Origin: Escherichia phage AV111
Strand: one strand, 5' to 3'
Length of the DNA: 64,000 nt
Sequence record: OR352941.1
Both the position numbers and the translations under genes were made by a program. This document shows positions 10,325-58,278 of the stretch, piece by piece; position 1 is the stretch's first letter, and every line of letters begins with the position of its first letter. A model generated the notes under the pieces. That model ran no database searches. It was not told where the DNA came from and worked only from the letters and a program-made list of their open reading frames with translations.

Positions 10325-10342
10325 GGGAGACTTCGGTCTCCC
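10325..10342 (+). terminator. Stem-loop gggagaCUUCGgtctccc followed by T-run; terminator after gene 23
   Basis: Perfect 7-bp GC-rich stem with UUCG-type loop, then atttttgg on plus strand. Confidence 0.7.
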
Positions 10343-10352
10343 ATTTTTGGTT

Positions 10353-10622
10353 TTATTTCTGTGCAATTTCGATGTAAGTTTTCAAAATATTTTGCCAATT
10401 AGGCATACCTTCTTGGACATATGCTGGAGAACCGTCTTTGTTTTTGAATGATGCAAGTTTATCAGTAGCCCAATAGCCTTTAGCTCGAGCTTCAGAATCA
10501 ACTTTCATCCATACTTTGTTGAAGGCATTACCATTAACTTTTGCACCATATTTTTCTACTAACTTAACTGCTTCAGCTTCCAGAACTTTTAAAGTATCTC
10601 TTAAGAAACGTGCTTTAGTCAT
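10353..10622 (-). CDS. Hypothetical 89-aa protein, antisense to the late capsid operon
   Basis: ORF MTKARFLRDTLKVLEAEAVK...; T4-early-type promoter directly upstream at 10653-10682; no family recognised. Confidence 0.6.
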   Translation of the reverse strand: MTKARFLRDTLKVLEAEAVKLVEKYGAKVNGNAFNKVWMKVDSEARAKGYWATDKLASFKNKDGSPAYVQEGMPNWQNILKTYIEIAQK

Positions 10623-10652
10623 TTTGTTTACTCCTCTGTAGTTGATAAGTTT

Positions 10653-10682
10653 ATAGTATCACGTACCAAATACGTTGTAAAC
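10653..10682 (-). promoter_or_regulatory. T4-early-type sigma70 promoter (GTTTAC -35, TACTAT -10) for the 89-aa ORF
   Basis: Minus-sense reads GTTTAC-N17/18-gTGATACTAT; same architecture recurs upstream of many minus-strand early genes in this window. Confidence 0.6.
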
Positions 10683-10688
10683 AATCTT

Positions 10689-10696
10689 TATAAATA
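10689..10696 (+). promoter_or_regulatory. T4 late promoter TATAAATA upstream of gene 24
   Basis: Exact TATAAATA 28 nt before the gene 24 start codon. Confidence 0.75.
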
Positions 10697-10723
10697 ATCT
10701 ATATCACATAAGGAAAAAATGCA

Positions 10724-12007
10724 ATGAGTAAAATCCAAAAATTATTGCGTGAATCTACAACGTCTACTAGCAACTCAATTGGTCGCCCAAATCTCGTTGC
10801 TTTGACTCGCGCTACGACTAAATTAATATATTCTGACATTGTAGCAACACAAAGAACTAATCAACCTGTTGCTGCTTTTTATGGTATCAAATATCTTAAC
10901 CCAGATAACGAATTCACATTTAAAACTGGTGCTACTTATGCAGGCGAAGTTGGATATGTAGACCGAGAAAAAATTACCGAACTCACAGAAGAATCAAAAG
11001 TCACACTAAATAAAGGTGATTTTTTCAAATATAATAATATCGTCTATAAGGTGTTAGAAGATACACCGTTTGCAGATATTCAGGAAAGTGATCTAGAATT
11101 AGCTCTTCAGATTGCGGTCGTTCATTTAAAGGTACGGTTATTTTCGGATGCAGCGGTAACAAGCAAATTTGAAAGCTCTGGTAGCGAAATTTCTGATGCA
11201 AGATTCCAGATTAATAAATGGCAAACTTCAGTCAAATCTCGTAAACTTAAAACCGGCCTCACGGTTGAATTAGCGCAAGATTTAGAAGCGAATGGATTTG
11301 ATGCCCCTAACTTCTTAGAAGATTTGCTTGCTACTGAAATGGCTGATGAAATTAATAAAGATATTCTTCAGTCTTTAATTACTGTATCAAAACGTTATAA
11401 AGTTACTGGAATTACTGACACCGGATTTATTGACTTGAGCTATGCGTCTGCTCCAGAAGCAGGTCGTTCATTATATCGAATGGTGTGTGAAATGGTATCA
11501 CACATTCAAAAAGAGTCAACTTATACTGCAACGTTTTGCGTAGCTTCAGCTCGTGCAGCTGCTATTCTTGCTGCTTCTGGTTGGTTAAAACATAAGCCGG
11601 AAGATGATAAGTATCTTTCACAAAATGCTTATGGATTCTTGGCAAATGGATTACCTCTTTACTGCGATACCAACAATCCGTTAGATTATGTTATTGTGGG
11701 TGTTGTAGAAAATATCGGCGAAAAAGAGATTGTAGGGTCTATCTTTTATGCTCCATACACTGAAGGAGTAAATTTAGATGACCCGGAACATGTTGGTGCA
11801 TTTAAAGTTGTAGTTGATCCAGAAAGCTTGCAACCGTCTATCGGATTATTGGTTAGATATGCTTTATCAGCAAATCCTTACACAGTAGCAAAAGACGAAA
11901 AAGAAGCGAGAATAATTGATGGCGGGGACATGGATAAAATGGCGGGACGTTCAGACTTGTCTGTTTTATTAGGTGTTAAATTGCCTAAAATTATTATAGA
12001 TGAATAA
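10724..12007 (+). CDS. 24: Capsid vertex protein gp24
   Basis: 427 aa (same as T4 gp24), gp23 paralogue. Confidence 0.92.
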   Translation: MSKIQKLLRESTTSTSNSIGRPNLVALTRATTKLIYSDIVATQRTNQPVAAFYGIKYLNPDNEFTFKTGATYAGEVGYVDREKITELTEESKVTLNKGDFFKYNNIVYKVLEDTPFADIQESDLELALQIAVVHLKVRLFSDAAVTSKFESSGSEISDARFQINKWQTSVKSRKLKTGLTVELAQDLEANGFDAPNFLEDLLATEMADEINKDILQSLITVSKRYKVTGITDTGFIDLSYASAPEAGRSLYRMVCEMVSHIQKESTYTATFCVASARAAAILAASGWLKHKPEDDKYLSQNAYGFLANGLPLYCDTNNPLDYVIVGVVENIGEKEIVGSIFYAPYTEGVNLDDPEHVGAFKVVVDPESLQPSIGLLVRYALSANPYTVAKDEKEARIIDGGDMDKMAGRSDLSVLLGVKLPKIIIDE

Positions 12008-12015
12008 ACGAAAAA

Positions 12016-12031
12016 GGGACCTTACGGTCCC
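12016..12031. terminator. Bidirectional hairpin terminator between gene 24 and rnlB
   Basis: gggaccttacggtccc flanked by A-run upstream and T7 run downstream, so U-runs on both strands. Confidence 0.75.
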
Positions 12032-12039
12032 TTTTTTTG

Positions 12040-13039
12040 TTATGATACTAATTCAATCCATGCAGGACGCAGAACATCTTGCACCATTCGGACTAATTCT
12101 TTCTTAACAAGATTCGGATTATCAGATGATGTTAATACAATACCTTCACGAGAAGTTTCTTCCAGAATATCTTGAACAGTCAATCCCATCACTTTGCCAA
12201 AATCTTTTGGCGTTACAGTCCCAATCTTAGAAATAACATTATTAACACGGTTTAATGTAACATAACAAGCTAGGACATCAAGCAAGTTTTTGTCAATTTC
12301 GGTTAATGGAACCTGAGTTTTTAATAGGCTTATCAGACTTTTTCTTTTCACTGAATTTAGAGTTCTTACACTTAATAGCTACACGAGTACCGTTTGGCAG
12401 CCATTTAGGGAAACAAGGCTTCAGAACATAACCTTCTGCCGTATTATCGCCAATAACATTAGCATCAAATACACAATTATTTGCTTCTACAAGGTCTTCT
12501 GACGCAGTAGCATTATAAGCGGCTAAAACGGAATCAAGGTCATTTGGAATCGTGATAAGAGCATCAAATGTGCCACGTCCAAGCACTGGTGCCATTTTAA
12601 AACCGAATTCATTACAGAAATCTTGCATTTCGTAATCGGTCAAATACGTATTATCACCACTTTCTGTATTGATAAGGATATCGAACACATAAAAATCTTT
12701 TTCACCGTAGTCAACACCTTTCTGGATTCCACCACCAGCGAATTCACCAAAGACCTGATATGATACAGCTCGAGAACTACCCATTACTTCTTGAACGTTT
12801 TTAATAGCCTTATCATACTTCTTGAGTACAATTTCATAACCATAAAAATCTTCTGCTGGAAGAATAGGGCCTGTGCGCTTGGCGCATGTGACGTTGTCAC
12901 GTTCAATTATTAACGAGAAGTTAGTCCCATGGATTTTCTCACGTGCTACCCAAACACCAGTAGTCAAACCATTAGTGTAGAGTTTTTCAATAAACTTAGA
13001 GTTGTAGTGGTTTTCAAGACTGCTGTATTTCTTAAACAT
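12040..13039 (-). pseudogene. rnlB: RNA ligase 2 (rnlB) interrupted by a +1 frameshift; two ORFs of 248 aa (12293-13039) and 103 aa (12040-12351)
   Basis: N-part [16 protein letters not shown]...[10 protein letters not shown] (ligase KxHG motif) and C-part ...LACYVTLNRVNNVISKIG...RPAWIELVS each match remembered T4 Rnl2 (334 aa); the frames meet at an A5 run (T5 on plus strand, 12318-12322). Confidence 0.8.
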
Positions 13040-13158
13040 AAATCACCATTATAAATAATAATATCAAAATAATTAGCAGAGACTCTGTCTCTGACCAGAT
13101 GTTTAATTTGAATGGATAGAACCTAGATTCATTATACCATCAAAAAATGTAAAGCATA

Positions 13159-13410
13159 TTAGAACTTGATTTCTATCCAATGACCATCACGCTGGTCGTG
13201 ATTAATTTTGTACTGAAAGCCATTATCACGAAGCCATTGACCGACTTGTTCAGTTATAGTTAAATCGTTCTTTGACGGGTAGTACGTGAATTGTGTCTGG
13301 CCTTTGTCAGCGGCTTTCTCTGCCATCGCAGAGAAGTTAGTAATAAAATCACTCAACAAATTAGCTTTAGTGGCCAGAGCCCTTTCTCTTAATTCCTGTG
13401 CAAAACTCAT
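13159..13410 (-). CDS. Hypothetical protein (T4 24.x-like)
   Basis: 83-aa ORF between rnlB and hoc, position of T4 24.2/24.3. Confidence 0.55.
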   Translation of the reverse strand: MSFAQELRERALATKANLLSDFITNFSAMAEKAADKGQTQFTYYPSKNDLTITEQVGQWLRDNGFQYKINHDQRDGHWIEIKF

Positions 13411-13607
13411 TTCTTCACCTTTTTGTTAATCAAACGTTTACGGTATACAACTTTTTCTTTTGCTTTAAACTTTGACCGAGCTGTCTCGGCTTTAGTCCAT
13501 AGTAATCCAACTTCTTTAGGTTGTAAACCAATTTTTTGAGCAATTTCTACGAATGAAAATCCCGCCTCATGTAATGTATAAACTTCAACTTCAGCTCTCA
13601 TAATCAA
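13407..13607 (-). CDS. Hypothetical small basic protein with possible helix-turn-helix
   Basis: 66 aa; segment FSFVEIAQKIGLQPKEVGLLWTKAE resembles an HTH; basic C-terminal tail. Confidence 0.5.
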   Translation of the reverse strand: MIMRAEVEVYTLHEAGFSFVEIAQKIGLQPKEVGLLWTKAETARSKFKAKEKVVYRKRLINKKVKK

Positions 13608-13702
13608 TCCCGTATTATTTGGTTTGTGCCATTATATACATCAATCTCAAGTTGTGTTTTGTATGCTTTAAAAACGAAGAAAGGGGCCGAAGCCCCTTAC
13701 GA

Positions 13703-14551
13703 TTATGGATATGTATAGATGATACCAGTTTCCAAAGCAGTTTTATGGATGATGTATCCGTTACGTGATTCTTGAACATCAACTTCCGGATAGTCTTTCA
13801 TCATCTTCTGAAGAGTGTAACGATGCAGGTAGTATTTACTATCTGGATCTTCAGTTTTCCAATCTTTACCTTCTTCAGTCATTTTTTGGATTTCATCCAT
13901 AACCCACCAACCGCACCAGATGTAAGCTGAAGTACGATGTGGAAGAGGATGAACATAAGGTAATTCACCTTCTGGTTCCGGAGCAACTTTATCAGTTACC
14001 TGAACTTGACCTTCTGCTGTAATAGTTTTGCTATCGTAATCAGTTGCAGTTACTTGGGCTACACATTTAATTCTTTTTACTCCACTTGTAGTTGGAGTAT
14101 AGCTAAATGTGGAGTTAGTTTCTCCACCAACCTGTGAATCATCTACATACCACTGATACGTAGCAGACGCTCCAGCTGGTTGAGAAGCTAAGGCAGCAGT
14201 AAATTGAACTGGGGTTCCAATTACTCCAGCTGAAGGACTATTGGGAGTTACAGCTAAGGTAGTCGTTTGTGTCTTGTTTTGAACTGTGATGGTTGTAGAA
14301 GCTTCTGCTGTTTCAGCTTCAGCTTCTGGAACTGTATTTGTTGCAACTACTTTAATAGTCTTTTGACCGGCAGGTCCTTTTAGTACATAACTAAAAGTTG
14401 CTTCAGCTCCATCTTGCGGAACATCATCTACAGACCAAGCATATGTAATAGTTCCACCTCCAGTTTCACCACCGGGAGTAGCAGTAAACTGCTTAGTCTC
14501 ATCTATAACTCCAGTAGGTGTTTTAGGAGTTATATCAACTGTAAAAGCCAT
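13703..14551 (-). CDS. hoc: Hoc, highly immunogenic outer capsid protein (shortened, 282 aa)
   Basis: N-terminal Ig-like domains and C-terminal capsid-binding segment (APEPEGELPYVHPLPHR...GIIYTYP) match remembered T4 Hoc; about 94 aa shorter than T4 Hoc (376 aa). Confidence 0.9.
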   Translation of the reverse strand: MAFTVDITPKTPTGVIDETKQFTATPGGETGGGTITYAWSVDDVPQDGAEATFSYVLKGPAGQKTIKVVATNTVPEAEAETAEASTTITVQNKTQTTTLAVTPNSPSAGVIGTPVQFTAALASQPAGASATYQWYVDDSQVGGETNSTFSYTPTTSGVKRIKCVAQVTATDYDSKTITAEGQVQVTDKVAPEPEGELPYVHPLPHRTSAYIWCGWWVMDEIQKMTEEGKDWKTEDPDSKYYLHRYTLQKMMKDYPEVDVQESRNGYIIHKTALETGIIYTYP

Positions 14552-14560
14552 AAGTTATCC

Positions 14561-15229
14561 TTATTTTAATGTTACGAAAGAAGAATTACGAGTTTCACGA
14601 ATTAGAACTGATCCATCGCGATTAATATAATAAATTAAGCTAAATAATGTTTGGTGAGCAGAAGCGTGCACAAAACTGGTTGGACGAGATTTCCAATCTG
14701 GGGTTTCGGCTATCCATTGATAAATCCACCAAGGAACAGTAACATATCCTGGGCCTTTGCCTAATTTAATGAGTGTAGGACTAAAATTTTCAGGCAGAAC
14801 AAAATTTACTTCTTTATTTACCTCTGTCTCAGGCTCTTTTTCGGATTCAACAACCTGAGTAATTGCTTCTTCGAATTTATCATGGTCGAATTCTTTTTCT
14901 TGTTCGACAACTTCTAATACTTCAACTTGTTCTGTTGGAGAATCAAACAACAGAATAGCTTCTTCTTTAACTTCTTCGTTGGTGAAATTAACACCGTCTA
15001 CATCATCTGCGGCAGTAATTAAATCGGTGATAGATAATCCATCAGTTTCGGGTAACGGTTCATCAGCCAGTGCGTTAAGAGCTTCTTCGATATCAATAAC
15101 AATATTATCGAATGATTTTGTTTTCTTAACACTAATGCCAAATTGTTCCGCATATTCAAACAGTTTAGCTTTGGCTTCCTTTTTATCAGAAAGAGCACGT
15201 AACTCTTCAATATAGTCTTTATCGATCAT
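14561..15229 (-). CDS. inh: Inh, inhibitor of prohead protease (packaged internal protein)
   Basis: 222 aa acidic protein in the T4 inh position between hoc and uvsW (T4 Inh 226 aa). Confidence 0.75.
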   Translation of the reverse strand: MIDKDYIEELRALSDKKEAKAKLFEYAEQFGISVKKTKSFDNIVIDIEEALNALADEPLPETDGLSITDLITAADDVDGVNFTNEEVKEEAILLFDSPTEQVEVLEVVEQEKEFDHDKFEEAITQVVESEKEPETEVNKEVNFVLPENFSPTLIKLGKGPGYVTVPWWIYQWIAETPDWKSRPTSFVHASAHQTLFSLIYYINRDGSVLIRETRNSSFVTLK

Positions 15230-15242
15230 GGTATTTCCTCAT

Positions 15243-15250
15243 TATAAATA
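15243..15250 (+). promoter_or_regulatory. T4 late promoter TATAAATA upstream of uvsW
   Basis: Exact TATAAATA about 30 nt upstream of the uvsW ATG. Confidence 0.7.
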
Positions 15251-15279
15251 TAACTATATTTATTACATGGTAATTTGAC

Positions 15280-16794
15280 ATGACTGACATTAAAGTACAT
15301 TTTTATGATTTTAGTCACGTGCGCATTGAATGCGACGAAAGTACGTTTTACGAACTTCGTGACTTTTTTAGCTTTGAAGCCGATGGATACAAATTCAACC
15401 CGCGTTACAAATATGGGAACTGGGACGGTAGAATTCGACTTTTAGATTATAACCGTTTGTTACCATATGGACTTGTAGGACAAATAAAAAAGTTCTGTAA
15501 CAATATGAGTTATTCTGTATGGATTGACCCTAAAATCTTTGAGACAGAAGACCTTACCAGGGAAGATTTTGACGCATGGCTTTCTAAACAAGAAATTTAT
15601 TCGGGCAATTCCAAAATCGAACCACATTGGTATCAAAAAGATGCAGTATATGAAGGACTAGTTAATCGTCGTCGAATTTTAAACCTTCCGACATCAGCAG
15701 GTAAATCACTAATCCAAGCACTTTTAGCTCGATATTATCTAGAGAACTATGAAGGTAAAATTCTCATTATCGTCCCTACAACAGCATTGACAACCCAGAT
15801 GGCTAATGATTTTGTTGATTATCGCTTGTTTAGTCATTCGATGATTAAGAAAATTGGCGGTGGTGCTGATAAAGCAGACAAATCTAAAAACGACGCTCCA
15901 ATTATTGTTGGCACATGGCAAACGGTAGTTAAGCAGCCTAAAGAATGGTTCTCTCAGTTCGGTATGATGATGAACGATGAATGCCACTTAGCAACAGGCA
16001 AAAGTATTTCTTCAATCATCTCAGGATTAAATAATTGTATGTTTAAATTCGGTTTATCTGGCTCATTAAGAGACGGAAAGGCCAATGTAATGCAGTACGT
16101 AGGCATGTTCGGCGAAATCTTCCGTCCTGTTAGCACGTCTAAATTAATGGAAGATGGACAGGTAACTGAGCTTAAGATTAATAGTATTTTCCTTCGTTAT
16201 CCAGACGAATTCGCCACCAAATTAAAAGGTAAAACATACCAAGAAGAAGTTAAAATTATTACCGGACTAAAACGACGTACAAAGTGGATTGCTCAACTTT
16301 CAGTCAAATTGGCTAAGAAAGACGAGAACGCTTTTGTAATGTTTAAACACGTTACACACGGTAAAGAAATATTTGAAGCTATTAAAGAGCTTGGATACGA
16401 AAAAGTTTATTACGTATCAGGTGAAGTTGATACTGAAACACGTAACGCGCTTAAAGTCATGGCAGAAAATGGTAAAGGCATTATTATTGTCGCATCATAT
16501 GGAGTATTCTCTACTGGTATTTCAGTCAAGAATCTTCATCATGTTATTTTTGCCCATGGTGTTAAATCAAAAATTATCGTACTTCAAACCGTAGGTCGCG
16601 TGCTTCGCAAGCATGGTTCTAAATCTGTTGCTACAGTTTGGGATCTCATCGACGATGCAGGTGTAAAACCTAAATCATTAAATACTAAAAAGAAGTATAC
16701 TCATCTTAATTACTTGTTAAAACACGGTATTGATCGTATCCAACGTTACGCTGATGAGAAATTTAACTATGTAATGAAAACAATTAATTTATAA
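15280..16794 (+). CDS. uvsW: UvsW, SF2 DNA helicase (recombination/repair)
   Basis: 504 aa; helicase motifs (LPTSAGKS Walker A, DECH box); N-terminus MTDIKVHFYDFSHVRIE matches T4 UvsW. Confidence 0.93.
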   Translation: MTDIKVHFYDFSHVRIECDESTFYELRDFFSFEADGYKFNPRYKYGNWDGRIRLLDYNRLLPYGLVGQIKKFCNNMSYSVWIDPKIFETEDLTREDFDAWLSKQEIYSGNSKIEPHWYQKDAVYEGLVNRRRILNLPTSAGKSLIQALLARYYLENYEGKILIIVPTTALTTQMANDFVDYRLFSHSMIKKIGGGADKADKSKNDAPIIVGTWQTVVKQPKEWFSQFGMMMNDECHLATGKSISSIISGLNNCMFKFGLSGSLRDGKANVMQYVGMFGEIFRPVSTSKLMEDGQVTELKINSIFLRYPDEFATKLKGKTYQEEVKIITGLKRRTKWIAQLSVKLAKKDENAFVMFKHVTHGKEIFEAIKELGYEKVYYVSGEVDTETRNALKVMAENGKGIIIVASYGVFSTGISVKNLHHVIFAHGVKSKIIVLQTVGRVLRKHGSKSVATVWDLIDDAGVKPKSLNTKKKYTHLNYLLKHGIDRIQRYADEKFNYVMKTINL

Positions 16795-16819
16795 GGGCTT
16801 CGGCCCTTAGGAGATAAAA

Positions 16820-17050
16820 ATGGTACTTGAATTTAAACAATTTTTATACGAAGCATCTATTGACGAATTCATGGGTAAAATTGCTAGTTGTCATACCCTA
16901 GAAGGGCTTGAAGAATTGGAAGCTTATTATAAGAAACGTATAAAAGAAACGGAATTAAAAGATACAGATGATATTTCTGTCAGGGATGCCTTAGCAGGTA
17001 AGCGTGCCGAACTTGAAGGCGATGATGAGGATGTGGAAGAAGACTTCTAA
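16820..17050 (+). CDS. uvsW.1: UvsW.1
   Basis: 76-aa acidic ORF immediately after uvsW, same size as T4 UvsW.1. Confidence 0.8.
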   Translation: MVLEFKQFLYEASIDEFMGKIASCHTLEGLEELEAYYKKRIKETELKDTDDISVRDALAGKRAELEGDDEDVEEDF

Positions 17051-17108
17051 TTAAAAAAAGGCCCGACCTTTTTGGAAGGGCCAAAAACCATAGGCAAAAA
17101 AGGTAACA

Positions 17109-17276
17109 CTATAGTAAAAGTTGGGTTTCGTTCAATTGCTCTTCTGAACTTTCTGAAACCGGCAATTGTTGGACATAGTTATAACAAGGACCAGGATGTG
17201 CTGGACCTTTGTCTGTTTCAACAACCAATGCAGAATCGATTGGAGTTTTACAGACAACACAAATCTTATCTGACAT
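17109..17276 (-). CDS. uvsY.-2: uvsY.-2-like small Cys-containing protein (55 aa)
   Basis: Hand-translated minus-strand ORF MSDKICVVCKTPIDSALVVETDKGPAHPGPCYNY..., preceded by SD GAGGAG and late-promoter-like TATAAATA (plus 17302-17309); below the 60-aa cutoff of the ORF track. Confidence 0.65.
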   Translation of the reverse strand: MSDKICVVCKTPIDSALVVETDKGPAHPGPCYNYVQQLPVSESSEEQLNETQLLL

Positions 17277-17399
17277 GATTGTCTCCTCTGAATTATATAT
17301 CTATTTATAACCCCATCTTAAAACGCATTTCTTGTACACGCTTTAAACATGCTTCCATTTCTGCTAAAAGTCTAAATACTTCTTTATAATTTGTCATAT

Positions 17400-17627
17400 T
17401 TACCCCATATCTCTCATATGCATATCAATGCCCATATCTTTAGAATAAAAATATTCATCAAGATATCCGGCAAATTTTCCTTTAATATAAAGGACATCTT
17501 CACCACACGGGTGGTCTGCCAGTATACGAATATCCTGACGACGTAGACGATACCTTTCCATTAAGAATTTAATTTCAGTTTCAAATTCTTCGTCATTATT
17601 AAAGGCATCTTCAATTGAATAACGCAT
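17400..17627 (-). CDS. uvsY.-1: uvsY.-1-like protein
   Basis: 75-aa ORF immediately downstream of uvsY on the same strand. Confidence 0.7.
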   Translation of the reverse strand: MRYSIEDAFNNDEEFETEIKFLMERYRLRRQDIRILADHPCGEDVLYIKGKFAGYLDEYFYSKDMGIDMHMRDMG

Positions 17628-18040
17628 TATTGCCCCGCTTCAAATTCTCGCATATCCTGGATATGTTTAAGTGCAAAACTACGAGACTTAACTGCGTCAA
17701 GTGCACCACTACAGAACTCAAGTAAAATTCCCCAGTATTGTAAAGTAGTCTCTATTTTAAGCACATCTTTATCTGCAGCCAGGACAGTCTTCATTTCAGA
17801 TTTCTCGTATCGGTCCATACTGAATTCATCACCGTCACCTCGTCCCGAGTAGTAGTCTAATCTTGCTTTTAGAGCAGTTTTCTTCTGAGTCTCTATACGC
17901 AACATTTCTTTACGAATAAATGAGTGCTTACGTAGCCATTTGCTGTATAACTTAACATTATTCGCTGTCTCATATTGCAACTTTGTCATATCAATAGCTA
18001 AGTCTGCGTCTAACTCTTCCTGTAAATCTTCCAGCTTCAT
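17627..18040 (-). CDS. uvsY: UvsY recombination mediator
   Basis: 137 aa, identical length to T4 UvsY; N-terminus MKLEDLQEELDADLAIDMTKLQYE. Confidence 0.92.
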   Translation of the reverse strand: MKLEDLQEELDADLAIDMTKLQYETANNVKLYSKWLRKHSFIRKEMLRIETQKKTALKARLDYYSGRGDGDEFSMDRYEKSEMKTVLAADKDVLKIETTLQYWGILLEFCSGALDAVKSRSFALKHIQDMREFEAGQ

Positions 18041-18119
18041 AATGTTCTCTCTTTAACTAATAATCTCCCGGCTGTATCGGAAGGACCTAAAACCATTATA
18101 CATAGTTTGCCTTGAAGCA

Positions 18120-18518
18120 TTACACTCTATTGCTTGACGCTAACTGAAGTTTAATTTGTTCAATATCGTCAGGGTTGTCTACGACCGAAAATCTAATCTC
18201 TACTATAACCGTATAGTCATCATATACTGGCGTTACACTTACAGAAAGTTTGTCGATGCGTGGCTCATAGTTACGAACAGCTGCCTGGATATTACGCTCA
18301 ATCGTATCGGTTGTAAGTGGTGTCATGTTCTCGAAAAGTTCGTCGACCAAATCGCATCCAAATTCAGGGTCGAAGGGGCGTGAGCCTTTTCTAGTTGTCA
18401 CTATGCCAAGAAGACTATTTTTAATAGAACGAAGTCCTACAGAACGAGCAACGTCCTTGTTCCAATCCATACGCATTTCTGGGTCGATATCTGAATAAAG
18501 TTTATTGATATTAGACAT
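18120..18518 (-). CDS. 25: Baseplate wedge protein gp25
   Basis: 132 aa; ...NINKLYSDIDPEM..IEQIKLQLASSNRV matches T4 gp25. Confidence 0.93.
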   Translation of the reverse strand: MSNINKLYSDIDPEMRMDWNKDVARSVGLRSIKNSLLGIVTTRKGSRPFDPEFGCDLVDELFENMTPLTTDTIERNIQAAVRNYEPRIDKLSVSVTPVYDDYTVIVEIRFSVVDNPDDIEQIKLQLASSNRV

Positions 18519-19144
18519 TATAGTAACTCAAAGAATTCTTTGAGGCCTCGTATTGTGTGAACGTGTGACGCCCCACATTTGGGACATTTAATAGGGGTTG
18601 CCAGATAAATTGATGGCGACACCAAAAGATTTTTAATATTGATCATGTCATCTTCTGTTATAAGGCCGTAAAGGTCGTTTATTTCTGCTTCAGTTAAATC
18701 TTCAACAGGGATGGACTCTCCATTGACAAAAATGGCCTCAATACATGAAGCAATCATTAATGCGATATTTTTATCGTCAAATAATTTAGGTTGACGGAAC
18801 TTAATTTTAATACCACTAAACGAATACCAGGGATCGGCCTGTTCATCTAATTGAGTGTGCAATAAATTCATATAGACTTGAAATGAATGCCCACAGGAAC
18901 AATTCCAGGTGTGTTCTTGATTCACTTCACCTAATGAATGTGCCCACAGATTTACCAACAATAGCTCGGCTTCTTGTTTAGTCAAGTTTTTAGCGTTAGA
19001 GCAATTAGTGATAATATTGTTCACTGCTGATTCAATAGTACCGGTAGCCCGTGCACCTATGAGTCCTAAATATTCTTTTAAAGTAAAGGCTCTACAATTC
19101 ACTTCTTTATCGCCTAAACGTACGGTAAACGTATATTTGTACAT
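18518..19144 (-). CDS. 26: Baseplate hub protein gp26
   Basis: 208 aa as in T4; synteny, divergent from gene 51. Confidence 0.85.
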   Translation of the reverse strand: MYKYTFTVRLGDKEVNCRAFTLKEYLGLIGARATGTIESAVNNIITNCSNAKNLTKQEAELLLVNLWAHSLGEVNQEHTWNCSCGHSFQVYMNLLHTQLDEQADPWYSFSGIKIKFRQPKLFDDKNIALMIASCIEAIFVNGESIPVEDLTEAEINDLYGLITEDDMINIKNLLVSPSIYLATPIKCPKCGASHVHTIRGLKEFFELL

Positions 19145-19162
19145 GTTAACTCCTTTATTGTG

Positions 19163-19174
19163 TATTTATAAATA
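19163..19174. promoter_or_regulatory. Overlapping divergent late promoters (TATTTATAAATA) for genes 26/25 (minus) and 51 (plus)
   Basis: tatttata (19163-19170, TATAAATA on minus) overlaps TATAAATA (19167-19174, plus) in the 47-nt 26/51 intergenic gap. Confidence 0.65.
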
Positions 19175-19191
19175 ATAGAAAAGGAGTAATT

Positions 19192-19944
19192 ATGGCTAAT
19201 ATAATTCGTTGTAAATTACCGGACGGTGTTCATCGTTTTAAGCCGTTCACTGTGGCGGATTATAGAGACTTTTTACTAGTTAGAAATGATATCGAACATC
19301 GTTCGCCACAAGAACAAAAAGAAATAATTGCCGATCTGATTGATGATTATTTTGGCGAGTACCCTAAAACATGGCAACCATTTATATTCCTGCAAGTTTT
19401 TGCAGGCTCTATAGGCAAAACAAAAGTTCCCGTTATTTTCACTTGCCCTAAATGCTCTAAAGAAAAAACTGCACCATTTGAGATATATCAAAAAGAACTA
19501 GTCGAACCTGAACTTGATGTTGCTGGTATAAAAATACGTTTTTCTTTCCCTGAAAAGTTTTATGACAACAAGGCATTAATGATAAGTGAAAACATAAAAG
19601 AAATATATTATAATGACGAATGGTACCCATGGAATGATTTGACTGAAGAGAACCAAATCCAAGTAATAGAAGCAATAGACATTGACTCGCTCGAGAAGGT
19701 TATTGCTTCTATGAACCCTATTAATTTGACCCTTAGATTAGGTTGTTGTGAACGACATGTTAAAACATATACTGATATCTTAGAGGTTTTTAAATTGTTA
19801 GTTAACCCTGATGAGATTTTTACATTCTATCAGATAAACCATTCACTAGTAAAGAGTCAATACACATTGGATTCTATTATGCAAATGATTCCTGTTGAAC
19901 GTGGTATTGCTTTAACATTAGTAGAAAAGGACCATAAAAAATGA
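19192..19944 (+). CDS. 51: Baseplate hub assembly catalyst gp51
   Basis: 250 aa (T4 249 aa); synteny. Confidence 0.85.
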
Positions 19945-21113
19945 CAGTATTCCAACGTCCAGGATATCCTAACTTAAGCGTTAAATTATACCAAGATTAT
20001 TCGGCTTGGCAAGAAAATAGATACGTTGAACTCGCGGCAACAATAACAACTTTAACCATGCGAGATTCGCTATATGGAAGAAATGAAGGGATTCTTCAAT
20101 TTTATGACACTAAAAACATCCACACTAAAATGGACGGTAGACAGATAGTTCAAATCTCTGTTTCAAATTCAAACACGCCTCTCCAAGTTAGAACTCGAAT
20201 TTATGGATGTAGACATTATTCTGTGTCTGTGGACTCAAAAGGTGACAATATTATTGCAATTGAGCTTGGAACAATACATTCTATAGAGAACCTTAAATTT
20301 GGGCGTCCATTCTTCCCGGACGCAGGCGAATCTATACGTGAAATGTTAGGTGTCATATACAAAGACCGTGCGTTAATTACTCCGCCAATAAACACTATTA
20401 ATGCTTATGTTCCTGATATCCCTTGGACAAGCACATTTGATGATTATTTGGCATATGTCAGAGAATTAGGACTTGCTACTGCGAGTGATAAGTTCGTATT
20501 CGTATGGCAAGATATTTTAGGCGTAAACATGATTGACTACGATACTCTTATTGGTCAGGAAGGCATTAAGATGATTGTAGGTGAGCCAAATACTGTAGGT
20601 CAGTATATTCAAGAGCTTGAGTATCCATTAGTATGGGATTTTACCTGGATGACTAAAGCCAACCAATTTACAAGAGACCCTATTAAAAACGCCACAATAT
20701 TCGCCCATTCATTTTTAGATACATCTATTCCGGTTATTGTTACTGGCGATGGTGATAATGCTATTCTTGTGTCAAGATCCGGTGGATATTCCGAAATGAC
20801 CTATCGTAATGGATTTGAAGAAGCAAGTCGTCTTCAGACAATGGCTCAATATGACGGATATGCTAAATGCACTACTACAGGTAATTTTAACATAACGCCT
20901 GCTACTAAAATTATATTTGTTGACCAAAAGAACCAATTCAAATCCGAATTTTACGTGGATGAAGTTATTCATGAGTTATCAAATAACAACTCACAAACTC
21001 ATCTGTACATGTTTACCAACTCAATGGTGTTAGAACCTGTTAACCCAGTTAAGGTTAAAAATGAACTTAAATCTGATTCTACCTCTAAAGAAAATAATTC
21101 TACCACAGTCTAA
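19941..21113 (+). CDS. 27: Baseplate hub protein gp27
   Basis: 390 aa (T4 391 aa); synteny. Confidence 0.88.
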
Positions 21114-25443: not shown

Positions 25444-25449
25444 GAAAAA

Positions 25450-25466
25450 GGGAGACAACGTCTCCC
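25450..25466. terminator. Hairpin gggagacaacgtctccc between convergent gene 54 and the alt-region genes
   Basis: 7-bp GC stem identical to the repeated gggagac stem family; T-rich flank. Confidence 0.5.
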
Positions 25467-25475
25467 TTTAGGGGT

Positions 25476-27915: not shown

Positions 27916-27956
27916 AGTGTTTTCCTTTTAGTAATAATTTATATTTATGCCAAAAA

Positions 27957-27970
27957 GAGCCCGAAGGCTC
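27957..27970 (-). terminator. Hairpin gagccUUCGggctc plus U-run (minus sense) downstream of alt
   Basis: Stem-loop with UUCG loop in the minus-strand sense, followed by UUUUG. Confidence 0.5.
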
Positions 27971-28159
27971 TTAATCCACAATCGGGAGCAAAGTACGATA
28001 AACTTCAAAATTAGGGCCTTTTTCGTACCCATTAACGTTATCTACGAAAACCCGATACGAATTTTCATTAGGAAAATCTAATATAATCTGAGAGCAAGAG
28101 GTGGAAACATCTCCACCATCCTTCTTAGCTACAATAACTGTTTCTAAATAAGCTTTCAT
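27971..28159 (-). CDS. Hypothetical small protein
   Basis: ORF track 69 aa; probable start MKAYLETV overlapping the gene 30 stop. Confidence 0.45.
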   Translation of the reverse strand: MKAYLETVIVAKKDGGDVSTSCSQIILDFPNENSYRVFVDNVNGYEKGPNFEVYRTLLPIVD

Positions 28160-41894: not shown

Positions 41895-41920
41895 AATAAA
41901 GTGGGACCGAAGTCCCGTCC

Positions 41921-42430: not shown

Positions 42431-43512
42431 TTCGATTGAGCTCGCTAATTCTCAACCCGTTCTCTTATGAACTGCTACATATTACTATGCAGACCAGACT
42501 ATATCACAATCCCGGAGGGATTCTCCCCATTTCGAGTCGCTTGACCCTACGTCCGAAGACTAGTCGTTGAACCTTGCTTTGCAATTGTCGCCGTGCCATC
42601 GTTTATATGTTGATGGTGATAAATCTTTCTTATCACAATATGGACAATTCAATTGAATTCTATTTGGATTTAATTTACATCTGTCATTATGTTTTAGATA
42701 AAATCCAGGACCTTTACCAATGTGACCACAGAAATCACATGTGATTTCTTTTTGTGCAGGATGGGTCCCGTTCTTAACCATTTCTAATGTTTTTGCTGAT
42801 GTTCTTTTCTTATGGTCTTCTGATAAGAAATGATGTGAACCGTCATTTACCCGTTTTGATTGAGTTTCTGACTGCATTTTACCACCGCAAAATACATGAG
42901 TACCTTCTTTTATAGCTGCAATATTACGTTCTTTGACTTTTGCAACATGCTCAGCTTGTTGAAAATTATGTATACCTAATGCAACTCTATTTAAATTAGA
43001 TTTACGTTGTATTTCACCACCTAAAAGATGAAATGTACCATTTTCTATCTTAGATTTAATAGAGGCAATATTTTTAGCTCGTACTTCAGGGATATTAAAA
43101 ATCTGGATTTCTCTAGATTTTGCGGCTTTAGAAGCTAATTCAGAAATTTCTTCAGGAGAATATTTCATTCTAAGCTTTATAGCATGACAAGCCTGGTAAT
43201 CTTTTTGAGCTAAATGTATATCATAATGTTCCTGTATAGAAAGGCACATCAAATTATCTAAATCATTATTTTCACGGTTACCGTCTTTATGATGGATTTC
43301 GTATGTTCTTCCATCAGAATCTTTAGGTATAGGTCCGTTAGCATCTATCCAAATTTTTCTATAGTTCAATTGTGCATCCTCTTAAAAGTATAATCATATT
43401 TATATTATACTAATTAAAGGTGCAAGCAAAACCTTGGCTGCTAGTTTTCCTATAAAGGACTTTCCAGCAATTAAAGGAGTTTTCGATAAACGTTACCGTT
43501 TAAAGGCGCATT
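42431..43512 (-). mobile_element. Probable group I intron in nrdB carrying an HNH homing endonuclease gene (boundaries approximate)
   Basis: About 1.1 kb separates two halves of a conserved NrdB at the FYVSFA / ELMEGN junction; ~145 and ~160 nt of noncoding sequence flank the endonuclease ORF, as in the T-even nrdB intron. Confidence 0.7.
42560..43369 (-). CDS. HNH homing endonuclease, I-TevIII-like (intron-encoded)
   Basis: 269 aa; HNH motif EIHHKDGNRENNDLDNLMCLSIQEHYDIH; C-terminal Cys-rich zinc-finger-like segments (CDFCGH...C, CPYCDKK...C); same length as I-TevIII. Confidence 0.8.
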   Translation of the reverse strand: MNYRKIWIDANGPIPKDSDGRTYEIHHKDGNRENNDLDNLMCLSIQEHYDIHLAQKDYQACHAIKLRMKYSPEEISELASKAAKSREIQIFNIPEVRAKNIASIKSKIENGTFHLLGGEIQRKSNLNRVALGIHNFQQAEHVAKVKERNIAAIKEGTHVFCGGKMQSETQSKRVNDGSHHFLSEDHKKRTSAKTLEMVKNGTHPAQKEITCDFCGHIGKGPGFYLKHNDRCKLNPNRIQLNCPYCDKKDLSPSTYKRWHGDNCKARFND

Positions 43513-44190
43513 TTACGCAAAAGATACATAAAAACGAATTGCTTCTAAGGCATTAATAACGTGCAAACAGAGGTAAAGAGATTTCATTAGCTCACGCTTC
43601 CAATATGTCTCATGCTCAATAGCATCTTCAATAACGTCTTCGTCTGCATTAATTTCTTTTTGGTATTCGATATCAGCTTTAGCGTTTTCCCAATAACGAG
43701 CTTTAACCAGAACATCATCATAATATCGTCCGATAGATTCGGCACGCTTCATAATAGCTTCATCTAATACAATCTCATCAAACACCTTCGATGGATCTGT
43801 ATAAAGATTTCGCATAATATGAGTATATGAACGAGAGTGAATAGTTTCACTGAAAGTCCATGTAGCAACCCATGTATCTAATGAAGGGTCTGAAAGCAAT
43901 GACATAAGTACCGCAGATGGTGCTCTACCTTGGATAGAATCTAATAATGATTGATACTTAAGGTTGTTGGTAAAGATGTCCTGTTGGAACTGTGGAAGCT
44001 TATTAAACTGGGCCGAATCCAACATCAAGTTTACTTCCTCGGGACGCCAAAAGAACGAGAGCTGCTTTTCGATAAGCTCTTCAAAAACTTTATGACGCTG
44101 AATATCATACCGTGCGAGGCCAAGACCAGAACCAAAGAACATCGGTTCATTCAAAACATCGACTTGTTGTGTGTTAAAAACTGTACTCAT
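43513..44190 (-). CDS. nrdB: Ribonucleotide reductase small subunit NrdB, 5' exon
   Basis: 225 aa ending ...LCLHVINALEAIRFYVSFA then stop (stop lies in the insert). Confidence 0.85.
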   Translation of the reverse strand: MSTVFNTQQVDVLNEPMFFGSGLGLARYDIQRHKVFEELIEKQLSFFWRPEEVNLMLDSAQFNKLPQFQQDIFTNNLKYQSLLDSIQGRAPSAVLMSLLSDPSLDTWVATWTFSETIHSRSYTHIMRNLYTDPSKVFDEIVLDEAIMKRAESIGRYYDDVLVKARYWENAKADIEYQKEINADEDVIEDAIEHETYWKRELMKSLYLCLHVINALEAIRFYVSFA

Positions 44191-47748: not shown

Positions 47749-48609
47749 TTATACCGCCATTTTAGCTTTGATAGCTGGATGAGATTCGTAATTTTTAAGA
47801 ACGAAATCAGAATGTGTCATCGTTCCAGTAACCCAGTCCATTTGGATTTTTGTAGGCCAATTCTCAAAATTACTAGGCCAATTAATTTCAAGAGAACATA
47901 ACTCTTTAGGTTCACGACGAAGAACTTCTTTGCATTGTTCTACATGATTGCTGTAGATATGCGTGTTGCCGCCTGAGAACACTAAATCACCTGGAATAAG
48001 GTTACACATCTTCGCTACAATATGCGTTAAGGCAGCGTACGAGGCGATGTTGAACGGCAGGCCCAAGAAAACATCTACACTGCGTTGATACCATTGTAAA
48101 TCAAGATGTCCATTACGCACATTAAATTGATAGAACATATGACAAGGAGGAAGAGCCATTTGGTCAATTTCGGCTGGGTTCCATGCAGAAACTATTTGAC
48201 GACGATCATTAGGAAGAGCTTTAATACGGTCGATAGTTTTGACCAATTGGTCTACACCACCAAAATCACGCCATTGCTTACCATAAATAGGACCAAGTTC
48301 GCCGCTATGATATCCAAGGTCTTTTGCCTGATTTTCATAGTTGTCGTCCCAAATAGTTTTACCTTCAATTAGACTGCCATGAGTACGAATACGCAAATCA
48401 TTAACATTGGTAGAACCAGACATGAACCACAGTAACTCGGCAATACAAGCTTTCCATGCTAATTTCTTAGTTGTTACTGCAGGGAATCCTTTAGTCAGAT
48501 CCCATCGTAATTTAGTTCCGAACAGAGCAATAGTGCCGGTACCTGTACGGTCGTCTGTTTCGTAGCCATTTTCTAAGATATCTTTAATCAGGTATTGGTA
48601 TTGTTTCAT
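47749..48609 (-). CDS. td: Thymidylate synthase (intronless)
   Basis: 286 aa uninterrupted; TS motifs (LPPCH.F.QF, DLGPIYG); same length as spliced T4 TS. Confidence 0.93.
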   Translation of the reverse strand: MKQYQYLIKDILENGYETDDRTGTGTIALFGTKLRWDLTKGFPAVTTKKLAWKACIAELLWFMSGSTNVNDLRIRTHGSLIEGKTIWDDNYENQAKDLGYHSGELGPIYGKQWRDFGGVDQLVKTIDRIKALPNDRRQIVSAWNPAEIDQMALPPCHMFYQFNVRNGHLDLQWYQRSVDVFLGLPFNIASYAALTHIVAKMCNLIPGDLVFSGGNTHIYSNHVEQCKEVLRREPKELCSLEINWPSNFENWPTKIQMDWVTGTMTHSDFVLKNYESHPAIKAKMAV

Positions 48610-49898: not shown

Positions 49899-49987
49899 TT
49901 TGATTTCCTCATGTTGTTGATAGGTCTATACTAACACATCCAGGGAAGAAGTAAACAACCTTTTCAGTAATTTACAGATACTCAAAA

Positions 49988-50005
49988 GGGAGACCGAAGT
50001 CTCCC
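49988..50005 (-). terminator. Hairpin gggagaCUUCGgtctccc plus U-run (minus sense) after gene 32
   Basis: Same 18-mer as at 33226; UUUUG follows in the minus sense. Confidence 0.65.
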
Positions 50006-56200: not shown

Positions 56201-57128
56201 AGCATGGGGTAATAGCGCTACAGATGGTGCCCGTGATACAGTATTTGAAGCGGGTGACGAAACCGGATACCATTTCTATTCTCAGCGCGCTGCTGATAAT
56301 AAAGTATCATTTAATATTAATGGAACACTTTATTCAACAGGTATTGTTTCTACAAATGGATTAAATGTTACGGGTGTTTCTACCTTTACCGGGCCTATTA
56401 GTGCTACAGGCGAAATTGTTTCTAGTTCTCCTATTGCATTCAGAGCTATTAACGGTAACTATGGTGTTATGCTTTATAACGCTGGTAACAGTTCTTATAT
56501 TGCATTAACTAACTCAGGTGACCAGACCGGGACGTTTAATAACTTACGCCCGATCACGATTAACAACGCCACAGGCTTAGTTCGTCTTGACAATGGTGTT
56601 CAAATCACAAGTGGTGCAACAATAACTACCGGCGGGTTAACTGTAAATAACAGAATTATTTCTAACGGCGTTAAAACTGCCACGGTTTATACCGATAAAC
56701 CAACAGCTTCTACTGTAGGTTTTTGGTCTATTGACATTAACGATTCTGCTGTATATAGCCAATTCCCTGGATACTGGACGCGTGATAACAAAGGTAACCG
56801 TGACCAAGAAATTAAATATCCTGGTACTTTGACTCAATTCGGCAATAGCTTAGATTCGCTTTATCAGGATTGGATTTGTTATCCTACGGGTGCAAATGGT
56901 GGTAGTATTCGTTATACTCGTACCTGGCAGAAAAATAAAGATGCTTGGACTTCATTTGCAATGGTATTTGATAGTGGCAACCCACCTTCACCTAGCGATG
57001 TCGGTGCTATCCCATCTGATAATGCTGTTATTGGAAACCTTACTATTCGAGACTTCTTACAATTAGGAAATGTGAGAATTGTTCCGGACCCGGTTAACAA
57101 AACAGTTAAATTTATATGGGTTGAATAA
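53295..57128 (+). CDS. 34: Long tail fiber proximal subunit gp34
   Basis: 1277 aa; MADIKRKFRAEDGLDAGGDKIVNVALADRTVGTDGVNVDFL...collinear with remembered T4 gp34 (1289 aa). Confidence 0.95.
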   Translation: MADIKRKFRAEDGLDAGGDKIVNVALADRTVGTDGVNVDFLVQENTVQVYDSTRGYNKGFVVLYDNLLYQAINDIVSPSGAFNLLQWRAVRTDAQWITVASGTYQLSSGESISVNTGAGNDMVFTLPNTPVDGDTVVLADIGGRTGTVKVQINASVQSILNFRGEQVRTVLMTRPRSQLLFVFSNRLWQMYITDYGKESITVTPASPYQAQANDFIVRRFTSAAPINITLPRNANNGDIISLVDLDKLNPLYHTIVKTFDDTTSIGEVGTHIAEGRNDSDAFFVFDAASSLWRIWEGDQKSRLRIIRADSNIRPNEEVLIFGTNNATAGTINLTLPTGILSGDTVKISMNYMRKGQTVKIKAAEGDTIASSVALLQFPKRSEYPPDAQWVSVTELEFNGTTSYVPVLELAYIEDTVAGTSYWVVQQNVPTVERVDASSNTTRARLGVIALASQAQANVDLENTPAKEVAITPETLANRTATESRRGIAKIATTAQVNQNSTASFVDDTIVTPKKLNERTATETRRGLAEIATQAETDAGLDDTTIITPKKLQARQGSETLSGIVKYVSTTSATPAETRGAAGTNVYNKTVNNLTISPKALDQYKATYAQQGAVILAVDSEVIAGQSQAGYSHAVVTPETLHKKTSTDGRIGLIEIATQAETNAGTDYTRAVTPKTLNDRKATEGLSGIAELATQVEFDTGTDDTRISTPLKIKTHFDSSDRTSVNSDSGLIEEGTLWNHYTLDISKANETQRGTLRVATQAESNAGTLDDVLITPKKLLGTKSTETSEGVIKVATQDETVTGTSTNTAVSPKNLKWIVQSEPTWAATTAIRGFVKTSSGSITFVGNDTVGSTQPLESYEKNSYAISPYELNRVLANYLPLKAKAADSNLLDGLDSLQFIRRDIDQTVNGSLSLTKQTNLSAPLVSTSTASFGSEASVTRRLTLNDSSGSEIIFTKGTQSLSNKENFVVRAWGNSATDGARDTVFEAGDETGYHFYSQRAADNKVSFNINGTLYSTGIVSTNGLNVTGVSTFTGPISATGEIVSSSPIAFRAINGNYGVMLYNAGNSSYIALTNSGDQTGTFNNLRPITINNATGLVRLDNGVQITSGATITTGGLTVNNRIISNGVKTATVYTDKPTASTVGFWSIDINDSAVYSQFPGYWTRDNKGNRDQEIKYPGTLTQFGNSLDSLYQDWICYPTGANGGSIRYTRTWQKNKDAWTSFAMVFDSGNPPSPSDVGAIPSDNAVIGNLTIRDFLQLGNVRIVPDPVNKTVKFIWVE

Positions 57129-57136
57129 GAGGTTAT

Positions 57137-58261
57137 ATGGAAAAATTTATGGCAAGGTTTGGACAGGGATACGTCCAAACGCCGTTTTTATCGGAAAGCA
57201 ATTCAGTTAGATTTAAGCTAAGTATAGCGGGTTCATGCCCGCTTTCAACAACTAATCCGTATATTTTGTTCCAAAACGAGCCTTTAGGGTTGCAGTCTTT
57301 TGGTATTGGACTAAATGTTAGGGTGATAAATCCGGAAAATGGAACTATAGTTGATAGTAAATTATACAATTTTGCGCCTACAAATAATGCAACTTCGGCC
57401 GCGTTTATTTCGTTTGTTAATACATACGCGGATAATTTCATTTTCGCATTTATTTCTAATAACAAATTTAATTTGCCGCCAGAAATAATTGAATGGTTTA
57501 AAGCTGCTGGGAGTTCAGTTATACCGTCAATTGAAGTTGCTAGTCTTGTTGATATTTCATATTCAGCGTTTTATGTTTCAGGTAAAAATACTATTGCATT
57601 AGAACACATAAAATACAGTAATAAGAAAACAATTTCTGATTACGCAACTCCATTAGATATTGTATATGACTCTATTGCTGATATAGGTGCTACCGGCTAT
57701 CCTAGACGTACATATGAAGCTCTAGAAACGTTTTTATCTCCTGTTGAAGGAACTAACAATGAAATAAAAAGGATGCCTACATCATCCCTTGTTACTCCTA
57801 TCGCAAACTATGGATTAAAGCCTACAGATTTTCTTTATTTGAAATTTCAATTAATGGCTGATGAAGAATTATTAGAGGAAGGAACCACAAGACTTTCAAT
57901 TCGTTTCTTTAAGTCTCCATCTAGCTCTCCTATATCATCTAAAGATATAAACTTTGATGGAACTGCCGGGGAGTGGAAGCTATATGAAGAATACGTTGAA
58001 ATACCAGCTGAAGCTGATGGCTTTACAGTATATTGTTACCGTACGGCCCCAGTCGGTCAAGGTGGACTAAGAAATGTTATTTTCACTGAAGTATCATGTA
58101 ACGGAAGTATAGCAAAACCAGCCGAGTTTGGTATAAACGGTATTCGTGCTAATTACATCGATGAATCATTAACCGGTAATGATATAATGGACTTGCCTAC
58201 TCAGTTATCTAACGACACAGGTAAGGTATTTGGGCAGGAATTTAAAGAGTACACAGAATAA
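57137..58261 (+). CDS. 35: Long tail fiber hinge connector gp35
   Basis: 374 aa (T4 372 aa); synteny. Confidence 0.85.
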   Translation: MEKFMARFGQGYVQTPFLSESNSVRFKLSIAGSCPLSTTNPYILFQNEPLGLQSFGIGLNVRVINPENGTIVDSKLYNFAPTNNATSAAFISFVNTYADNFIFAFISNNKFNLPPEIIEWFKAAGSSVIPSIEVASLVDISYSAFYVSGKNTIALEHIKYSNKKTISDYATPLDIVYDSIADIGATGYPRRTYEALETFLSPVEGTNNEIKRMPTSSLVTPIANYGLKPTDFLYLKFQLMADEELLEEGTTRLSIRFFKSPSSSPISSKDINFDGTAGEWKLYEEYVEIPAEADGFTVYCYRTAPVGQGGLRNVIFTEVSCNGSIAKPAEFGINGIRANYIDESLTGNDIMDLPTQLSNDTGKVFGQEFKEYTE

Positions 58262-58262
58262 A

Positions 58263-58278
58263 GGAGACTTCGGTCTCC
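58263..58278 (+). terminator. Hairpin ggagaCUUCGgtctcc plus T-run after gene 35
   Basis: UUCG loop in plus sense, followed by ttttcg. Confidence 0.6.

Follow-up and report, generated by a model that had tools for sequence, protein, structure and literature searches.

Sense-oriented UUCG hairpins as probable RNA-level punctuation in the T4-type Escherichia phage AV111

We analyzed a 64,000-nucleotide stretch of DNA from Escherichia phage AV111 (sequence record OR352941.1; the whole of this stretch is called the window below), in which short G+C-rich hairpins, most of them capped by a UUCG tetraloop, are dispersed between the genes. These hairpins are very probably RNA-level punctuation of a T4-type phage, serving as Rho-independent terminators and 3'-end stabilizers at most sites and as intercistronic elements at the rest. 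The assignment is built on their anatomy, their position, the orientation of their loops, the covariation of their stems and the allele pattern at individual sites, each of which was observed. Bases 8000–20000 of the window matched more than 150 T4-like coliphages at 95–99% identity, and the closest match (about 98%) belongs to the genus Mosigvirus (RB69 type), for example vB_EcoM_G2469 (MK327934; G2469 below). The gene order runs from the terminase genes through those of the head (gp23, gp24, hoc) and baseplate, alt, ligase, 30.x, nrd, td, frd and gene 32 to the tail-fibre genes 34–38.

Hairpins of the window

A sequence-only reading of the window had listed five hairpins sharing one stem, GGGAGAC...GTCTCCC, and seven shorter relatives. 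All twelve exist where it placed them, and nine carry a C(UUCG)G loop. They are listed here with their proposed roles, together with two promoters that resemble the PeSLs, composite terminator and early-promoter motifs of T4-type phages with lineage-specific G-rich stems (Arbiol 2010, PMC2839356; Comeau 2014, PMC4122927).

10324–10343, plus strand: putative terminator after gene 23 (major capsid protein), UGGGAGAC-UUCG-GUCUCCCA, then UUUUUGGUUUU; a terminator is annotated there in MK327934.
12011–12036, either strand: putative bidirectional terminator between the convergent genes 24 (plus) and rnlB (minus), A5-GGGACC-UUAC/GUAA-GGUCCC-U5+.
13681–13698, minus strand: putative terminator after hoc, AAGGGGC-UUCG-GCCCCUU, then UCUUCGUUUUU; the hairpin at the T4 hoc site is identical.
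16792–16809, plus strand: putative intercistronic hairpin between uvsW and uvsW.1, UAAGGGC-UUCG-GCCCUUA, with the stop codon inside the stem, no U-run, and GGAG and an AUG directly 3'.
25447–25469, either strand: putative bidirectional terminator between the convergent genes 54 (plus) and alt.-3 (minus), AAAGGGAGAC-AAC/GUU-GUCUCCCUUU, a triloop.
27955–27972, minus strand: putative terminator after alt.1, AAGAGCC-UUCG-GGCUCUU, UUUGG, then a late-promoter-like CATAAATA upstream of alt.
32285–32302, minus strand: putative intercistronic hairpin after 30.7, GGGAGC-UUCG-GCCCCC, with one A·C mismatch and no U-run; GAGGAA and an AUG come next.
33225–33244, minus strand: putative terminator after 30.9, AGGGAGAC-UUCG-GUCUCCCU, then UUUGUG; the same stem stands at this site in distant lineages.
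33161–33189, minus strand: candidate early-type promoter 3' of the 30.9 hairpin, GTTTAC-N17-TACTAT, PeSL-like, read by eye.
41903–41916, minus strand: hairpin between nrdB and denA, GGGAC-UUCG-GUCCC, lying between an AAGGA that resembles a Shine–Dalgarno (SD) sequence and the denA AUG (41894–41892).
49988–50005, minus strand: putative terminator after gene 32, GGGAGAC-UUCG-GUCUCCC, then UUUUGAG; orthologous hairpins occur in other lineages.
49928–49956, minus strand: candidate early-type promoter 3' of the gene 32 hairpin, GTTTAC-N17-TAGTAT, PeSL-like, read by eye.
58260–58281, plus strand: putative terminator between genes 35 and 36, AAAGGAGAC-UUCG-GUCUCCUUU, UCGCG, then the late promoter TATAAATA at 58287–58294.
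62311–62326, plus strand: putative intercistronic hairpin after gene 37, AGGGGC-UUAG-GCCCCU, with no U-run; GGAGG and the start of gene 38 come next.

The number of these hairpins is far beyond chance. Thirty CTTCGG words occur in the window, eight of them within perfect stems of at least 5 bp; in 300 dinucleotide-preserving shuffles of the window, with the same stem cut-off, the mean was 0.06 and the maximum 2. The hairpins were also counted by an unbiased census of perfect G+C-rich hairpins. The exact pattern GGGAGAC-N4-GTCTCCC has three matches against 0.01 expected, at 10325–10342, with TTCG on the plus strand, and at 33226–33243 and 49988–50005, with CGAA on the plus strand and hence UUCG on the minus strand. 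The remaining two of the five supposed same-stem copies depart from it: the core at 25450–25466 is GGGAGAC-AAC-GTCTCCC, the same stem around a 3-nt loop, and that at 58263–58278 is GGAGAC-TTCG-GTCTCC, one G-C pair shorter, with A-U pairs that lengthen the stem to 58260–58281. Among the shorter relatives, 13683, 16795, 27957 and 41903 are true C(UUCG)G hairpins, the one at 32286 has the mismatch noted above, and the one placed at 62313 really spans 62311–62326.

Stems measure 5–11 bp, and computed hairpin energies range from −6.6 to −16.4 kcal/mol. The members without UUCG are those at 12011 (UUAC on the plus strand, GUAA on the minus), 25447 (AAC/GUU) and 62311 (UUAG), the first two lying between convergent genes; the CUUAGG loop of the third receives a special-loop bonus in the energy model. 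At least four U residues stand immediately 3' of the stem at about eight or nine of the twelve sites, in line with the earlier remark that most are followed by a U-run: 10324, 12011 (on both strands), 13681, 25447 (clearly on the minus strand), 27955, 33225, 49988 and 58260. The run is absent at 16792, 32285 and 62311, and only distal and interrupted at 41903. A scan of the whole window against Rfam at gathering thresholds gave no match; Rfam holds no family for these hairpins.

Several sites can be followed across lineages. The hairpin between uvsW and uvsW.1 is present in some lineages and missing from others, the alt.1 site is kept with varying stems, and the 30.7 hairpin, perfect in G2469, is kept with covarying stems. 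A GTTTAC box also lies 3' of the gene 32 hairpin in other lineages, and TATAAATA at the gene 35/36 site is kept across lineages.

Late-promoter-like TATAAATA boxes lie 3' of the hairpins after genes 35, alt.1 and 18. The last of these hairpins (4339–4360) is an intergenic one beyond the twelve, with the 6-nt loop UUUCGG followed by TATAAATA. Another, after gene 19 (4938–4953), has a GAAA loop and no U-run. An intergenic hairpin after uvsW.1 (17053–17087, GGCCC...GGGCC) has a U-run on the minus strand only, and its position is that of a conserved 'bidirectional' terminator of Nolan 2006.

Orientation of the loop

All eight perfect UUCG sites are intergenic, and when the imperfect site at 32286 is included, UUCG lies on the strand of the preceding gene at nine of nine sites (three plus, six minus). 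The distance to the preceding same-strand stop codon ranges from an overlap of 2 nt to 24 nt. The sequence-only reading had held that UUCG always faces the transcribed strand. This is true of every UUCG site, but the word 'always' is too broad for the whole set, as the hairpins at 12016 (GGGACC-TTAC-GGTCCC), 25450 and 62313 have no UUCG to orient. Gene strands in the census were taken from a crude longest-open-reading-frame (ORF) gene caller, and the calls in the window were corrected by hand against the MK327934 annotation (for example, genes 19 and 28).

The same reading had proposed a genome-wide scan of orientation against gene strand, and the rule held there. In the complete genome of G2469, each of the 21 intergenic hairpins with UUCG presents it on the strand of the gene that it follows (5 plus, 16 minus); of the 34 sense tetraloops in that genome, 21 are UUCG. 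T4 gave 13 of 13. Across about 40 T4-like genomes or fragments from IMG/VR, 166 hairpins were sense, one was antisense only and two were neither or could not be assigned. Among the matches listed, 120 diverse viral contigs with GGGAGAC-N4-GTCTCCC gave a sense UUCG:CGAA ratio of 49:1, and 120 diverse contigs with AAGGGACC-N4-GGTCCCTT gave 32:2. The direction of the orientation bias across genomes is unambiguous.

Among the unidirectional sites of the family-wide census, the sense loop reads CGAA just once, at the hoc site of L018 (IMGVR_UViG_650627040). The close relatives of L018, namely L015, L016 and L022, have UUCG on the same stem, and the CGAA loop is probably a recent inversion.

Covariation and loop inversion

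At a given site, structure rather than sequence is conserved. Depending on the lineage, the stem after gene 23 is GGGAGAC, GGGAACC, GGGACC or GGAGCC with UUCG, or GGGAGCC with GCAA. In the single-site, ungapped alignment of this hairpin (six distinct sequences), both sides have changed in five of the eight pairs, 97.9% of the cells are paired, and none of the slid registers comes close in pairing. The sites after gene 32, gene 35, alt.1, 30.7, 30.9 and nrdB likewise keep the structure with differing stems.

The loops behave differently at bidirectional and unidirectional sites. At both bidirectional sites, the loop in the window is the reverse complement of that in the 98%-identical G2469 (TTAC versus GTAA; AAC versus GTT). 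At the gene 24/rnlB site, the flanks are inverted too, relative to G2469. The gp54/alt.-3 loop is flipped in G2469 and in L104, and among GenBank phages the AAC allele was found in 62 records and the GTT allele in 76, both being common among Mosigvirus-like phages. At the unidirectional gp23 site, by contrast, the UUCG-sense allele was found in 121 records of GenBank phages and an artificially flipped allele in none. The allele probes measured 51–52 nt with the loop in the middle, which forces every 28-nt seed to cross the loop. Inversion therefore occurs readily and is tolerated only at hairpins that transcripts enter on both strands. In the energy model, the UUCG strand has an advantage of 0.9 kcal/mol over its complement. 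These observations show that UUCG itself, and not merely a stable stem, is what selection keeps.

Function of the hairpins

Each hairpin combines a short G+C-rich stem, a C-G closing pair and an unusually stable UUCG cap within a few nucleotides of a stop codon, an anatomy from which, together with published work on T4-type phages, termination and stabilization in vivo may be expected. The hairpins with a U-run (after 23, hoc, alt.1, 30.9, 32 and 35, and at the two convergent sites) lie where transcription units end, and we therefore read them as probable Rho-independent terminators that protect the released 3' end. Once formed in the nascent RNA, they would make the host RNA polymerase terminate without Rho, and the same structures would then block 3'-to-5' exonucleases at the end so released. 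At the sites lacking the run (uvsW/uvsW.1, 30.7/30.6, 37/38 and nrdB/denA), the hairpin would most likely be a stability or insulation element inside a polycistronic RNA. Since the stem is palindromic, the loop is the sole asymmetric part of the element, and its orientation would be fixed by selection for UUCG in the RNA.

The RNA-level role put forward by the sequence-only reading is thus well supported by the orientation rule, the covariation of the stems, the loop-inversion contrast and the annotation of MK327934. Its label of terminators or stabilizers does not extend uniformly to the set, as four members have no usable U-run. The set is functionally mixed, and these four adjoin the SD sequence of the next gene.

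Several points weigh against our interpretation. A search of the accessible literature found no 3'-end mapping (Term-seq) of T4. The four hairpins without a proper U-run mean that the twelve cannot all be classical terminators, and at several other sites the run is short (four U), so that termination there is probably partial. The cross-genome orientation counts share ancestry, are not phylogenetically independent and came from a simple ORF-based gene caller. Moreover, covariation alone cannot tell an RNA hairpin from a DNA cruciform, because the stems are also DNA palindromes; the distinction rests on the orientation of the loop.

It has to be considered whether the palindromes act as DNA. 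They might, for example, extrude as cruciforms, serve as hot spots of recombination or mark sites for a nuclease or for packaging, and their position after genes would then be incidental. The stems are perfect DNA palindromes, their covariation suits DNA pairing equally well, PeSL motifs have been proposed as recombination sites (PMC2839356; PMC4122927), and, as the loop inversions show, the two arms sometimes interact in the DNA. However, a DNA palindrome would have no reason to hold its loop in one orientation relative to the transcribed strand, and that orientation is essentially invariant. In addition, the flipped allele is common at the bidirectional site and absent at the unidirectional one, and the placement of the hairpins is tied to stop codons and U-runs. 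We consider a DNA-level function highly improbable.

Another alternative is that the hairpins are mainly translational, serving to mask, present or space the downstream ribosome-binding site or to uncouple cistrons, and are not terminators. The four sites without a usable U-run (16792, 32285, 41903 and 62311) adjoin the next SD sequence or AUG and accord with this proposal. The clearest case is denA. Reading 41892–41925 on the minus strand, AAGGA overlaps the nrdB stop codon, the 14-nt hairpin begins after 1 further nt, and 8 nt separate the hairpin from the denA AUG. The site has no SD-like sequence other than this AAGGA, which is 5' of the hairpin and about 23 nt away from the AUG. The arrangement of SD sequence, hairpin and AUG is kept at nrdB/denA in about 18 lineages, with the stems GGGC, GGGGC, GGGCC and GGGAGAC. 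Split translation-initiation regions are known for T4 genes 38 and 25 (PMC3014915), which the conserved layout at 41903 matches. As in those genes, a stable hairpin stands between the SD sequence and the AUG of denA, and its folding would shorten the spacing of about 23 nt and draw the distant SD sequence close to the start codon. Judged by its layout, the 41903 hairpin appears to belong to a split initiation region and not to be a terminator; the denA case is not described in the sources that we consulted.

The 41903 hairpin, GGGAC-UUCG-GUCCC, contains the classic GGAC(UUCG)GUCC model hairpin.

A further pairing possibility arises at gene 36. The SD region of gene 36 (58308–58315) has exactly the sequence of the 5' arm at 58261–58268, AAGGAGAC, so that the 3' arm could pair with that SD sequence in read-through transcripts. 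More generally, the 5' arms are polypurine and SD-like and the 3' arms are pyrimidine-rich.

The split-region layout fits only one of the twelve hairpins, however. Most have U-runs and are followed by promoters or convergent genes rather than by a coupled cistron, and at the two bidirectional sites there is no downstream gene to regulate. A translational role thus fits a subset, which the punctuation model already covers with its intercistronic elements, and as a general explanation it is improbable.

Origin of the shared stem

From the near-identity of the copies, the sequence-only reading had concluded that they spread by recombination or gene conversion. We could not establish this. When the five copies were aligned with about 40 nt of flank each, similarity was confined to the hairpin of about 20 nt and its T-run. 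A mobile element or larger duplicated cassette, similar to repetitive extragenic palindromes (REPs) or miniature inverted-repeat transposable elements, was accordingly rejected, since the flanks do not align. A stem private to the lineage was also rejected, because distant T4-like contigs carry it after gp23, gp32 and gp35 and more than 120 diverse viral contigs contain its exact form.

One form of the proposal is that the GGGAGAC hairpins are a true repeat family, in which short-patch gene conversion, template switching or PeSL-type recombination carries copies of a unit of about 18–20 nt from one intergenic site to another and the stems of one genome thereby evolve in concert. Such copying would add to the terminator role and not replace it. 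The GGAGAC stem has six copies in the Mosigvirus genome and none in T4, and the preferred stem differs by lineage (GGAGAC, GGAGCC or GGGACC). Identical stems at non-orthologous sites of one genome form 18 pairs, against 9.1 by column-wise permutation (P≈0.002), and stem identity is 14.4% within lineages versus 7.1% between them. Lineage-specific stem-loop consensus sequences and recombination at composite terminator–promoter motifs have been published for T4-type phages (PMC4122927; PMC2839356), and the copies at 33225 and 49988 both precede similar candidate early promoters.

These observations have to be set against others. The same stem-loop stands at the same sites (after gp23, 30.9, gp32 and gp35) in lineages whose ligases are only about 64% identical, which fits old conservation or convergence. 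Among the listed matches to the exact stem, only about 45 of the 120 contigs have at least three T4-like proteins nearby. The 5' arms are almost always polypurine, which narrows the choice of stable stems and makes chance identity likely, and the permutation signal derives from two or three lineages. On balance, we regard a repeat family as rather unlikely.

Concerted evolution can also be combined with the inversion data. Conversion or template switching might homogenize a 'house' stem in each lineage, GGGAGAC in this one, and continually invert the loops. Inverted UUCG loops at unidirectional sites would be purged by selection acting on the RNA, and at bidirectional sites the two orientations would persist as a balanced flip-flop polymorphism. 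This extension is speculative, and we would expect it to prove wrong more readily than right.

Relation to known elements

The hairpins, their loop, its restriction to the sense strand and their positions are already known, textbook features of T4-type phages. Hairpins with CUUCGG loops are abundant in the intergenic regions of T4, according to Tuerk 1988 (PNAS 85:1364) as summarized in PMC8948821, and in a scan of T4 the flanks of CTTCGG were self-complementary only for occurrences on the sense strand (PMC7165471). As far as that summary describes them, the T4 hairpins share with ours the loop, the C-G closing pair, the short G+C stems, the mostly intergenic location and the sense restriction. 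The hoc hairpin is identical in the window and T4, whereas the GGAGAC stem favoured by the lineage of the window is missing from T4.

The sequence-only reading had also suggested a comparison with T4 terminator catalogues. Nolan 2006 (PMC1524935) used TransTerm to predict Rho-independent terminators conserved among T4-like genomes, including RB69; in that study, the terminator after gene 32 is conserved and the one between genes 35 and 36 is found in all six genomes. The predicted terminators coincide in position with hairpins of the window: one follows gene 23, one separates genes 35 and 36, one follows gene 32, one lies upstream of alt and one, bidirectional, follows uvsW.1. As far as consulted, that paper gives positions and does not discuss loop identity, orientation or stem sequence. 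In MK327934, the record of the closest relative, the same sites bear terminator annotations on the corresponding strand.

PeSLs present a further parallel, and their stem-loops terminated transcription effectively in lacZ fusions (PMC2839356). Their order of stem-loop, sigma-70-like early promoter, SD sequence and ATG also appears, by eye, at 33225 and 49988, and a lineage-specific stem consensus with a G-rich 5' arm is common to both. An early promoter of the PeSL type is absent at the other ten sites. Unlike PeSLs, most of the hairpins described here belong to conserved structural or replication modules, where late promoters, convergent genes or SD sequences come after them, and the copies are homologous over only about 20 nt.

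The REPs and bacterial interspersed mosaic elements of Escherichia coli are also dispersed intergenic palindromes at the 3' ends of genes, and they can stabilize upstream mRNA. REPs are longer and imperfect, have a family consensus and are linked to RAYT transposases. The likeness lies in the dispersed 3'-end palindromes; here, only the stem-loop is shared, and the five-copy flank alignment gave no signature of mobility.

Other features of the window

In rnlB (12040–13039, minus strand), an extra A at position 12322 of the window (AAAAA versus AAAA in G2469) causes a frameshift in RNA ligase 2 and leaves the ORFs 12040–12351 and 12293–13039, through either a sequencing error or pseudogene formation. 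The hoc product (13703–14551, minus strand) has 282 amino acids in the window versus 376 in G2469 and T4, about one domain fewer.

nrdB is split into 41921–42400 and 43513–44190 around an ORF at 42560–43369, and 42475–42715 on the minus strand gives a sub-threshold match to an Rfam group I intron (33.8 bits versus a gathering score of 50, E=1.4e-6). In contrast, td (47749–48609) appears uninterrupted in the window, and the td of G2469 has an intron with an endonuclease gene. A tRNA scan of the whole window found none.

Conclusion

As a discovery, the hairpin set carries little weight: it is real but ordinary, and such hairpins have been described since 1988. Its practical use is in annotation: eight or nine of the sites can be taken as the ends of transcription units, and four should not be named terminators. 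The one result that adds something is the contrast in loop flip-flop between bidirectional and unidirectional sites, which provides a clean natural experiment on frequent inversion filtered by selection on RNA.

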